DNA of 64,000 nucleotides from assembly GCF_003334785.1 (NCBI RefSeq), contig NZ_QOWV01000003.1; one strand, 5' to 3'. Position 1 is the stretch's first letter; each line of letters begins with the position of its first letter. Origin of the DNA: Escherichia coli. Lineage in GTDB: Bacteria > Pseudomonadota > Gammaproteobacteria > Enterobacterales > Enterobacteriaceae. The notes beneath the pieces are model-generated. The model was given only the letters and a program-made list of their open reading frames with translations. It made no database searches and was not told the origin of the DNA. A program made the translations under genes and the position numbers. Shown here piece after piece: positions 36,655-36,984 of this stretch.

Positions 36655-36984
36655 ATGAAACGCTTTCCGCTATTTCTTTTATTCACCCTGCTCACGCTGT
36701 CCACCGTTCCGGCCCAGGCCGATATTATCGACGACACCATTGGCAATATTCAGCAGGCGATTAATGACGCTTATAACCCTGACCGTGGGCGAGACTATGA
36801 AGATTCGCGCGACGACGGCTGGCAGCGTGAAGTGAGCGACGATCGGCGCAGACAATATGACGACCGCCGCCGCCAGTTTGAAGATCGCCGCAGGCAGCTG
36901 GACGATCGCCAGCGCCAGCTTGATCAGGAGCGTCGGCAACTGGAGGATGAAGAGCGGAGAATGGAAGATGAGTATGGGCGATGA
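36655..36984 (+). CDS. yjdP: Small secreted protein with highly charged Asp/Arg/Gln-rich repeats
   Basis: 109-aa ORF; signal peptide ending AQA, then repeated DDRRRQ(Y/F/L)(D/E)D units. Confidence 0.75.
   Translation: MKRFPLFLLFTLLTLSTVPAQADIIDDTIGNIQQAINDAYNPDRGRDYEDSRDDGWQREVSDDRRRQYDDRRRQFEDRRRQLDDRQRQLDQERRQLEDEERRMEDEYGR

Follow-up and report, generated by a model that had tools for sequence, protein, structure and literature searches.

A conserved heptad-repeat protein with a predicted signal peptide and an RcsB-box-like promoter footprint: sequence analysis of yjdP in Escherichia coli

The yjdP locus and its conservation

We analysed a stretch of 64,000 nucleotides of Escherichia coli DNA (RefSeq assembly GCF_003334785.1, contig NZ_QOWV01000003.1; hereafter the window), which is a K-12-like E. 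coli chromosome, with the focus on the small gene yjdP. The coding sequence lies at 36655–36984 on the plus strand and consists of an ATG start, 109 codons and a TGA stop, giving a protein of 109 aa. A Shine-Dalgarno sequence GAGG (36644–36647, plus strand), read from the sequence, is located 7 nt before the ATG, and GAG(A/G) is kept there in orthologues. The gene order is alsR/rpiR (minus strand), rpiB (plus strand, ending at 36586), yjdP (plus strand) and then the convergent phnP (37131–37889), followed by phnO, phnN and phnM. The 701 bases around yjdP are 100% identical to K-12 records, where the gene is annotated as 'yjdP: DDRRRQL repeat protein YjdP', and the window protein is 100% identical to K-12 YjdP; the name given to this frame in the original prediction, which was made from the letters alone, is thereby borne out. 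In MG1655 the gene is b4487 (4,313,868–4,314,197).

YjdP is already catalogued. The NCBIfam profile NF041443 ('DDRRRQL_YjdP', equivalog) scores 147.9 bits on the window protein against a cut-off of 90, with positions 1–101 of its 101 aligned, and Pfam PF28054 'YjdP' is precomputed on all close homologues of the window protein. Both families are named after the protein or its repeat, and no functional assignment is attached to either. A scan with a Pfam-A copy that lacks PF28054 returned only noise (best hit DUF7900, E = 0.048; no match with E < 0.04), a sequence search of the PDB found no relative, and the literature searched for 'yjdP', 'b4487' and 'DDRRRQL' contained no study of the protein.

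The gene is close to universal in E. coli, being found in 5405 of 5426 complete genomes (99.6%), in 5399 of them with at least 80% of its length covered. A scan of one genome per species yielded 77 loci; the intact orthologous open reading frame (ORF) is readable in 70 of them and N-terminally partial in 6. By record title, all loci but one of dubious label belong to the Enterobacteriaceae, with genera that include Escherichia, Citrobacter, Klebsiella oxytoca/Raoultella, Kosakonia, Kluyvera, Buttiauxella, Cedecea, Atlantibacter, Phytobacter, Leclercia, Pluralibacter, Trabulsiella and Yokenella. The signal peptide, the N-terminal helix and the reading frame are kept across more than 25 genera. 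The ratio of nonsynonymous to synonymous substitution (dN/dS) against orthologues is 0.05–0.21 in the plus frame, with dS near saturation, and hence yjdP is under purifying selection. A lack of conservation had been named as one of the findings that would overturn the original prediction; the gene is conserved, under purifying selection and transcribed. Further afield, 1.84 billion cluster representatives were searched exhaustively with HMMER, which gave only 53 matches, mostly YjdP-family fragments and a few long coiled-coil proteins; one remote relative, from a forest-soil metagenome, shares the architecture.

Two of the species loci stand apart. The locus of dubious label (L009, CACSKA010000007.1, 'Chryseobacterium sp. 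18061') bears a typical enterobacterial yjdP-phnPONM arrangement, and its YjdP is very similar to those of 'Citrobacter sp. 18056' (L035, from the same project) and Pluralibacter; the 'Chryseobacterium' label is probably wrong, or the assembly contaminated. Citrobacter koseri NCTC10786 (L078) carries a 22-codon yjdP remnant between rpiB and phnP that looks like a pseudogene.

Signal peptide and modules of the mature protein

Residues 1–22 (MKRFPLFLLFTLLTLSTVPAQA; 36655–36720, plus strand) form a predicted signal peptide, as judged from the hydropathy profile and an AQA-D site, with the predicted signal peptidase I cut after A22. Specifically, the n-region reads MKR, the h-region FPLFLLFTLLTLSTV is a 15-residue hydrophobic core with Kyte-Doolittle 9-mer means up to 2.58, and the c-region PAQA places Ala at −3 and −1, followed by Asp. 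A signal peptide of 19–23 aa that ends in an [A/V/T]-x-A cut site followed by D is present in 71 of 71 orthologues. No Cys, and hence no lipobox, occurs among the 66 distinct mature orthologues, and the twin-arginine motif is absent from the YjdP signal peptide. YjdP therefore has the sequence features of a Sec and signal peptidase I substrate throughout: n-region, h-region, −3/−1 residues, no lipobox Cys and no twin-Arg. The claim that the peptide is secreted, which a missing signal peptide would have overturned, is upheld; export is well supported by these sequence features, and the signal peptide is presumably cleaved at the predicted site.

The mature protein would contain 87 aa (about 85 had been estimated), with a mass of 10.98 kDa, an isoelectric point of 4.6 and a net charge of −8. 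It holds 20 Arg, 19 Asp and 9 Glu but neither Lys nor Cys, and the extreme charge that had been noted for it is evident in these 20 Arg and 28 Asp/Glu among 87 residues. The bias is family-wide: 23% Asp, 21% Arg, 12% Gln, 0.3% Lys, 2.4% Gly and no Cys. All 66 distinct orthologues have a net charge of −5 to −13, and together they contain 1214 R versus 19 K. Kyte-Doolittle means of −2 to −3.8 indicate a very high hydrophilicity. The composition is thus as unusual as had been remarked, but it is not new, as the family in NF041443 is named for this very repeat.

Alignment with orthologues from more than 25 genera reveals a common architecture, namely a signal peptide, a DIIDDxIGNIQQAINDAY helix, an acidic linker and RRRQL(D/E)(D/E) heptads. 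The N-terminal amphipathic helix (residues 23–40, DIIDDTIGNIQQAINDAY; 36721–36774, plus strand) is the most conserved segment of the protein across genera, and the stretch right after the cleavage site, D(I/V)IDDAIGNIQQAINDAY, is almost invariant. Its hydrophobic moment is 0.52, with an a/d-like seam formed by I25, I29, I32, I36 and A39; in the AlphaFold model it is helical at low confidence, with a predicted local distance difference test score (pLDDT) of 55–67. The Asp-rich linker (residues 41–60; 36775–36834, plus strand) is the least conserved part, differing between genera in both length and sequence (for example SSRSDDDDGRYDDGRY) and often containing DDDD or DDDDD runs. In the model, residues 41–52 have no DSSP secondary structure, the mean pLDDT of residues 41–50 is 52 and residues 44–46 fall below 50; the linker is probably disordered.

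The heptad repeat and its number alleles

The last 49 residues (61–109; 36835–36981, plus strand) consist of seven DDRRRQL-type heptads, SDDRRRQ, YDDRRRQ, FEDRRRQ, LDDRQRQ, LDQERRQ, LEDEERR and MEDEYGR, encoded by a 21-bp tandem repeat and predicted to form a single long charged α-helix. Across genera the region is conserved as ...QYDDRRRQLEDRRRQLDDRQRQLDQERRQLEDEERRLEDDY. At the DNA level, Tandem Repeats Finder reports the 21-bp repeat at 36838–36910 with 3.5 copies, 75% matches and a score of 76. Six hydrophobic residues stand exactly seven apart, an arrangement reached in 0 of 100,000 shuffles of the repeat segment, and the strongest period in the charge pattern is 7.3; the heptad repeat is therefore not a chance feature, and the description of the mature protein as dominated by heptad-like repeats is fully justified. 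The chain of six hydrophobic residues at i+7 is retained in 64 of the 66 distinct orthologues.

The number of units varies. Alleles with 6, 7 and 9 units encode proteins of 102, 109 and 123 aa. The 102-aa allele, common in E. coli and also present in Shigella, has lost one 7-aa unit through at least two independent deletions, which removed different units in different lineages; the K-12 allele is that of 109 aa, and the 123-aa allele, from E. albertii, has two extra units. Most length variants are in-frame 7-codon indels. Proteins of 100, 104, 107 and 108 aa are less frequent; a few of the indels behind them change the length by something other than a multiple of 7, which would put the heptads out of phase. 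Homologues with repeat-number polymorphism are P0025, P0039, P0062, P0038, P0021, P0023 and P0049. The alleles fit slippage or recombination between the 21-bp repeats, and if the modelled helix is right, they would change the length of the predicted rod in steps of about 1 nm.

A proposed self-paired single helix weighed against other readings of the repeat

The AlphaFold monomer, built on a 14-sequence alignment, contains one unbroken helix spanning residues 53–108 with a pLDDT of 88–97, corresponding to about 8.4 nm at 0.15 nm per residue. In the heptad register, position a is Y/F/L/L/L/M, positions b and c are Asp/Glu, positions d, e and f are Arg and position g is Gln. The repeat contains 36 attractive charge pairs at i/i+3 and i/i+4, versus 21.8 ± 3.5 in shuffles (1 of 5000 reaches this value), and only 4 repulsive ones, versus 21.2 ± 3.5 (0 of 5000), while its net charge is −1. 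This charge layout is the signature of a charged single α-helix, and as the repeat is nearly neutral with 36 attractive against 4 repulsive pairs, its charges mostly neutralise each other within one helix. The model and the charge pattern together lead us to infer that the rod exists as a single helix. Several points weigh against this reading: the overall fold of the monomer model, with a predicted template modelling score (pTM) of 0.35, and its N-terminal helix are of low confidence; a pure single α-helix has no need of the i+7 hydrophobic residue that 64 of 66 orthologues retain; and Asp favours helices less than does the Glu that is typical of ER/K helices. For YjdP in general, the searched literature holds no phenotype, partner or localisation data. 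One conserved hydrophobic residue per heptad makes a narrow stripe, less than a full a/d seam, and the conserved Leu stripe argues that one face of the rod contacts itself, the N-terminal helix or a partner.

The coiled-coil role that had been proposed is where this stripe bears most directly, since the repeat could be leucine-zipper-like, building a parallel or antiparallel dimer or a trimer rod in the periplasm as a soluble analogue of Lpp. The strict spacing of a hydrophobic residue at every seventh position over six heptads agrees with it, as does its retention in nearly all orthologues; with Leu taken as d, position g becomes Arg and e Asp, which makes attractive g–e' pairs possible, and the a/d seam of the N-terminal helix could help oligomerisation. 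However, a canonical coiled coil has hydrophobic residues at both a and d, and here only the periodicity is found. Position d reads R, R, R, R, E, E, E across the heptads, and if Leu is taken as d, position a is Arg, so that, in either register, four to five heptads have Arg at their second core position. Under established coiled-coil rules, a homomeric Arg layer in each heptad is strongly unfavourable. The E. coli alleles of 100, 104 and 108 aa additionally shift the heptad phase by non-multiples of 7. A Gly-Ser-linked tandem 'dimer' raised the pTM from 0.35 to 0.44 but lowered the helix pLDDT to 84–89 and left the N-terminal helix below 40; with no gain in confidence over the monomer, we regard this model as uninformative on oligomerisation. 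Foldseek searches of the PDB with the monomer and tandem models returned nothing usable, as expected for bare helices, and no two-helix analogue. The periodicity on which the proposal rested is therefore real, the core that it needs is half missing, and we consider a coiled coil a tentative possibility.

The suggested polyion-binding role fares worse. It could take several forms, with the linker buffering Mg2+/Ca2+ or trapping cationic antimicrobial peptides, or with Arg binding lipopolysaccharide phosphates, colanic acid or periplasmic glucans. The uniformly negative charge of the orthologues, the frequent Asp runs of the linker and the near-exclusive use of Arg over Lys speak for it; guanidinium binds phosphate and carboxylate well, and yjdP is induced along with colanic-acid genes. 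Yet the charges of the repeat are balanced and placed to pair mutually; conservation is lowest in the acidic linker, which would not be expected of a defined metal site; and searches of NCBIfam, Pfam and PDB sequences found no metal- or polysaccharide-binding family. The case is weak for the repeat and conceivable only for the acidic linker, and we judge such a role improbable. It is far less credible still that the ORF arises only as a side effect of a GC-rich 21-bp repeat in the DNA and encodes no functional protein. Long opposite-strand frames running through the repeat (36679–37005 and 36761–37171) and the repeat-number polymorphism could be quoted in its favour, but the low dN/dS in the plus frame at saturating dS, the conservation of signal peptide, N-terminal helix and frame in more than 25 genera, the predominance of 7-codon in-frame indels and the conserved Shine-Dalgarno sequence and start codon leave it hardly any room.

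A conserved RcsB-box-like footprint in the yjdP promoter

We compared the 130 nt upstream of the start codon from 71 loci, which comprise 68 distinct sequences. An 18-bp block, (A/T)TTGAGATTCCTCCGCTAC, is present 71–76 nt before the ATG in every genus; in the window it reads TTGAGATTCATCCACTAC (36583–36600, plus strand; 72 bp before the ATG), with an RcsB-box-like core TGAGATTCATCCAC at 36584–36597. The block carries 1.1–2.0 bits per position, versus about 0.1–0.3 in its flanks, and it is near-invariant whatever the upstream gene: rpiB, a hybrid histidine kinase (33 loci), an fdhF-like gene or others. Published RNA sequencing counts 478 reads on yjdP versus 96 on rpiB, five times more. The independence of the footprint from the upstream gene and the excess of yjdP over rpiB reads argue that yjdP has its own promoter.

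The RcsB homodimer box has been defined structurally and by electrophoretic mobility shift assay as TN(G/A)GAN4TC(T/C)NA (PMC7913699). The core TGAGA-TTCC-TCCGC agrees with it at 7 of 8 specified positions. Across the 68 sequences, box positions T1, G2, G4, A5, T10 and C11 are invariant, whereas position 3 varies between A and G, position 12 between C and T, and position 13 is free, which mirrors the degeneracy of the RcsB consensus. The single mismatch is the last base, which is C instead of A in 66 of 68 sequences. It is equally mismatched in the boxes located upstream of bdm (TAAGATTAGTCCTG) and osmB (TAAGATGATTCCTG), which we take to be the validated RcsB sites reported in 2005 in J. Bacteriol.

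A predicted −10 hexamer, TAATGT (36621–36626, plus strand; TAACGT in most genera), lies 23 nt downstream of the box. Its T1, A2 and T6 are each kept in 61 of 68 sequences at this fixed distance. The same geometry is observed at rprA, whose promoter DNA has been crystallised together with RcsB: exactly 23 nt separate the box TGAGACGAATCTGA from TACTAT, the annotated 5' end comes next, and the box centre accordingly lies at −42.5, just upstream of the −35. By analogy, transcription of yjdP would start near 36633 and leave a leader of about 22 nt. A generic sigma-70 scan found no consensus promoter for yjdP, as one would expect if the promoter depends on an activator and has a poor −35.

Other features were noted in this region. 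In K-12 the end of rpiB overlaps the putative activator site, the rpiB stop TGA (36584–36586) being the first three bases of the RcsB-box-like motif. An inverted repeat, TCATCCA-N9-TGGATGA (36590–36596 and 36606–36612), which is specific to Escherichia and has no counterpart in the other genera, extends over the −35 region and the right half of the box; a DNA operator or a weak terminator of rpiB are conceivable functions for it. As an RNA structure it is unsupported, the rpiB–yjdP spacer folding no better than shuffles (z = −1.3). Outside Escherichia and Citrobacter (loci L003–L075), the short leader can fold into a hairpin, GCCAG...CTGGC, located about 35 nt before the ATG, where the 5' end is predicted, with the Shine-Dalgarno sequence beside its 3' arm. 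Its arms (alignment columns 18–23 with 38–43) are paired in 80% of cells and include GTCAG/CTGAC variants; the covariation is 0.171 versus 0.130 in shuffles (1 of 500), although RNAalifold found almost nothing and only one pair shows compensatory changes. Elsewhere in the window, TGAGATCTTTCCGC at 46707–46720 also fits the RcsB pattern except at the last base, the one position that is mismatched in the yjdP box too, and may well be a chance match.

Expression of yjdP and the identity of its regulator

Inhibition of LolCDE raises yjdP mRNA 9.5- and 10.6-fold (PMC5105897). The same table places yjdP among osmB, bdm, wca/wza, rcsA, ivy, mliC, yjbEFGH, spy and cpxP, and its induction of about 10-fold compares with 25- to 190-fold for the top Rcs genes (PMC5105897). 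These expression data are consistent with Rcs control of yjdP.

On the combined evidence, direct control of yjdP by RcsB is probable in our view. A number of observations tell against it. The one-mismatch RcsB pattern occurs 20 times in the window versus 51.5 expected in shuffles, at or below chance, and we therefore rejected the consensus as a stand-alone test; as the sequence match alone is not above chance, the case rests on footprint conservation, spacing and expression together. The LolCDE-inhibitor response also includes RpoS and Cpx genes (PMC5105897), imipenem induces yjdP only 1.4-fold, and overproduction of CsiR lowers it to 0.28-fold, which we keep as a caveat. The PRECISE data assign both yjdP and rpiB to the Crp-2 iModulon, a hint that part of the yjdP transcription may be read-through from rpiB. 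The searched literature contained no rcsB-mutant data, RcsB-binding experiment or transcription start map tying yjdP to rcsB, and the supplements of PMC13098195 and PMC6941253 have no yjdP entry.

Several of these points would suit another occupant of the footprint, either a different LuxR/FixJ-type protein or a heterodimer of RcsB with an auxiliary partner, in which case induction on LolCDE inhibition would be indirect, for example via RpoS or Cpx. The nearly constant C at the last consensus position, the invariance of G2, T7 and T15, which lie outside the RcsB consensus, and a single-genome match not above chance would all be accounted for, as would the co-induction of RpoS and Cpx genes and the effect of CsiR. 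But on inspection by eye the footprint shows no CpxR (GTAAA-N5-GTAAA), sigma-E, PhoB or sigma-54 consensus, and its spacing to the −10 hexamer is identical to that of rprA. Such a regulator must also exist in all these genera and in K-12, where the neighbouring hybrid kinase locus is missing, and RcsB fits this description. We thus regard another regulator as rather unlikely and take RcsB, by inference from the conserved site, as the regulator of yjdP.

Genomic neighbourhood and other features of the window

yjdP is convergent with phnP, the last gene of the carbon–phosphorus lyase operon, in 66 of 77 species (loci L002–L078), and 11 of 77 have no adjacent phnP. On the upstream side the neighbour varies: about 13 loci have rpiB/alsR, 33 have a hybrid sensor histidine kinase and several other genes occur elsewhere, and in enterohaemorrhagic E. 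coli the OI167 island sits between yjcS and yjdP (PMC10128022). yjdP therefore indicates a hot spot of recombination or insertion beside phn. We rejected a functional link to phosphonate use, as the genes are convergent, the promoter has no Pho box and 11 of 77 species lack an adjacent phnP; because of the convergent orientation and the absence of a Pho-type site, the yjdP–phnP synteny is read as inherited at an insertion hot spot.

A GC-rich repeated palindromic element (37004–37110), no part of the protein, separates the convergent genes yjdP and phnP. It has direct copies at 37008–37031 and 37071–37094, of the form CCCCTC(A/G)CCCC..GGGGAGAGGG, and inverted arms at 37068–37080 and 37098–37110, with a strong hairpin at 37068–37110. 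The region 36975–37135 folds at −71.7 kcal/mol (z = −3.2), and the intergenic element has been listed as a G-quadruplex/hairpin (PMC5100583). This flank is variable among E. coli strains, and coverage drops there in 1580 records. The element is likely a bidirectional terminator or a repeat element. Two 'terminators' were also predicted within the coding repeat; they are on the wrong strand, and we discarded them as artefacts of the GC-rich repeat. Two minus-strand ORFs, 36679–37005 (108 aa) and 36761–37171 (136 aa), cross the repeat and the palindromic element and look like shadow ORFs.

Additionally, Rfam matches in the window comprise the small RNA SraL (1051–1191, minus strand), STnc630 (54634–54799, plus strand) and the selenocysteine insertion element SECIS_2 (21687–21741, minus strand), as well as nine naRNA4 units, which include a four-unit array at 48592–48968 and others at 8429–8499, 19035–19218 and 46036–46116.

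A working model for YjdP

Together, these data lead us to lean, with some reserve, towards the following model. YjdP would be an Rcs-induced, Sec-exported protein of 11 kDa that comprises an amphipathic head, an acidic tether and a self-neutralised single-helix rod, and would serve as a non-enzymatic structural or protective factor of the envelope. Its transcription would start from its own promoter about 22 nt upstream of the ATG, with a poor −35 and an activator site near −42.5, the putative RcsB box, and the protein would be made when the Rcs phosphorelay senses damage to the outer membrane, lipoproteins or peptidoglycan. The Sec system would export it to the periplasm, where signal peptidase I would cut after Ala22. 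The 18-residue amphipathic helix is the likely partner-binding 'head', which the flexible Asp-rich linker would join to the rod. In the rod of about 50–56 residues (about 7.5–8.4 nm), the DDRRRQL heptads would pair Asp/Glu with Arg along a single helix, leaving a stripe of one conserved Leu or aromatic residue per heptad for weak or partner-dependent contact. This arrangement suggests that, under envelope stress, YjdP would act in the periplasm as a spacer or adaptor that is rigid and highly hydrated. A bolder version, which we offer as speculation, is that YjdP is the first periplasmic charged single α-helix: a free rod of about 8 nm, varying between strains in 1-nm steps with 6, 7 or 9 heptads and made under direct control of RcsB on envelope damage as a spacer or adaptor that shows its N-terminal helix to an envelope partner.

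While the gene and its repeat were already catalogued, the conserved 18-bp promoter footprint of RcsB type is new. Through a conserved site with rprA-like geometry, it may usefully connect the Rcs envelope-stress response to a core gene that has so far been an orphan. If the link is true, yjdP is among the most conserved yet unstudied members of the Rcs regulon in Enterobacteriaceae, its promoter could serve as a compact Rcs reporter, and an exported Asp/Arg single-helix rod with repeat-number alleles joins the Rcs-induced small envelope proteins. Any role of rigid charged helices in the periplasm would likewise become testable. Both the RcsB-type promoter and the single-helix reading are put forward as testable leads.

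Comparison with known systems

The closest structural parallel is the charged single α-helix (ER/K or CSAH), known from myosin VI/X and caldesmon. YjdP resembles it in its long charged segment, its period of about 7, the excess of opposite charges at i/i+3 and i/i+4 and the predicted isolated helix. It differs in using Asp and Arg instead of Glu and Lys/Arg, in having one hydrophobic residue per heptad, and in its predicted periplasmic export and length of about 50 residues; the helicity here is that of a model. Hydrophilins and proteins of the late-embryogenesis-abundant type are defined by Gly above 6% and a high hydrophilicity index, and the YjdP family, with 2.4% Gly, falls short of the former.

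Among envelope proteins, Lpp and the leucine zippers share with YjdP the heptad periodicity and Leu at every seventh residue, and Lpp is likewise a small envelope protein forming a rod of about 8 nm. YjdP, however, has no lipobox or Cys and would thus be soluble and unanchored, and unlike leucine zippers it has only one of two core positions hydrophobic, with a tandem model that supports no oligomer. Spy, CpxP and ZraP (LTXXQ) are, like YjdP, small, exported, α-helical and co-induced by envelope stress, but YjdP has neither the LTXXQ motif nor a sequence match in Pfam or the PDB, and is predicted to be an extended rod rather than a helical-hairpin cradle.

As for regulation, yjdP shares with rprA-type RcsB promoters the TGAGA-N4-TCC box and the 23-nt spacing to the −10 hexamer, differing in the C at the last position of a box whose control by RcsB is here putative. 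It is co-induced on LolCDE inhibition with the small envelope proteins of the Rcs regulon (OsmB, Bdm, Ivy, MliC, YmgD/G and YpeC), and, like many members of that regulon, YjdP is a small exported protein lacking an assigned function.

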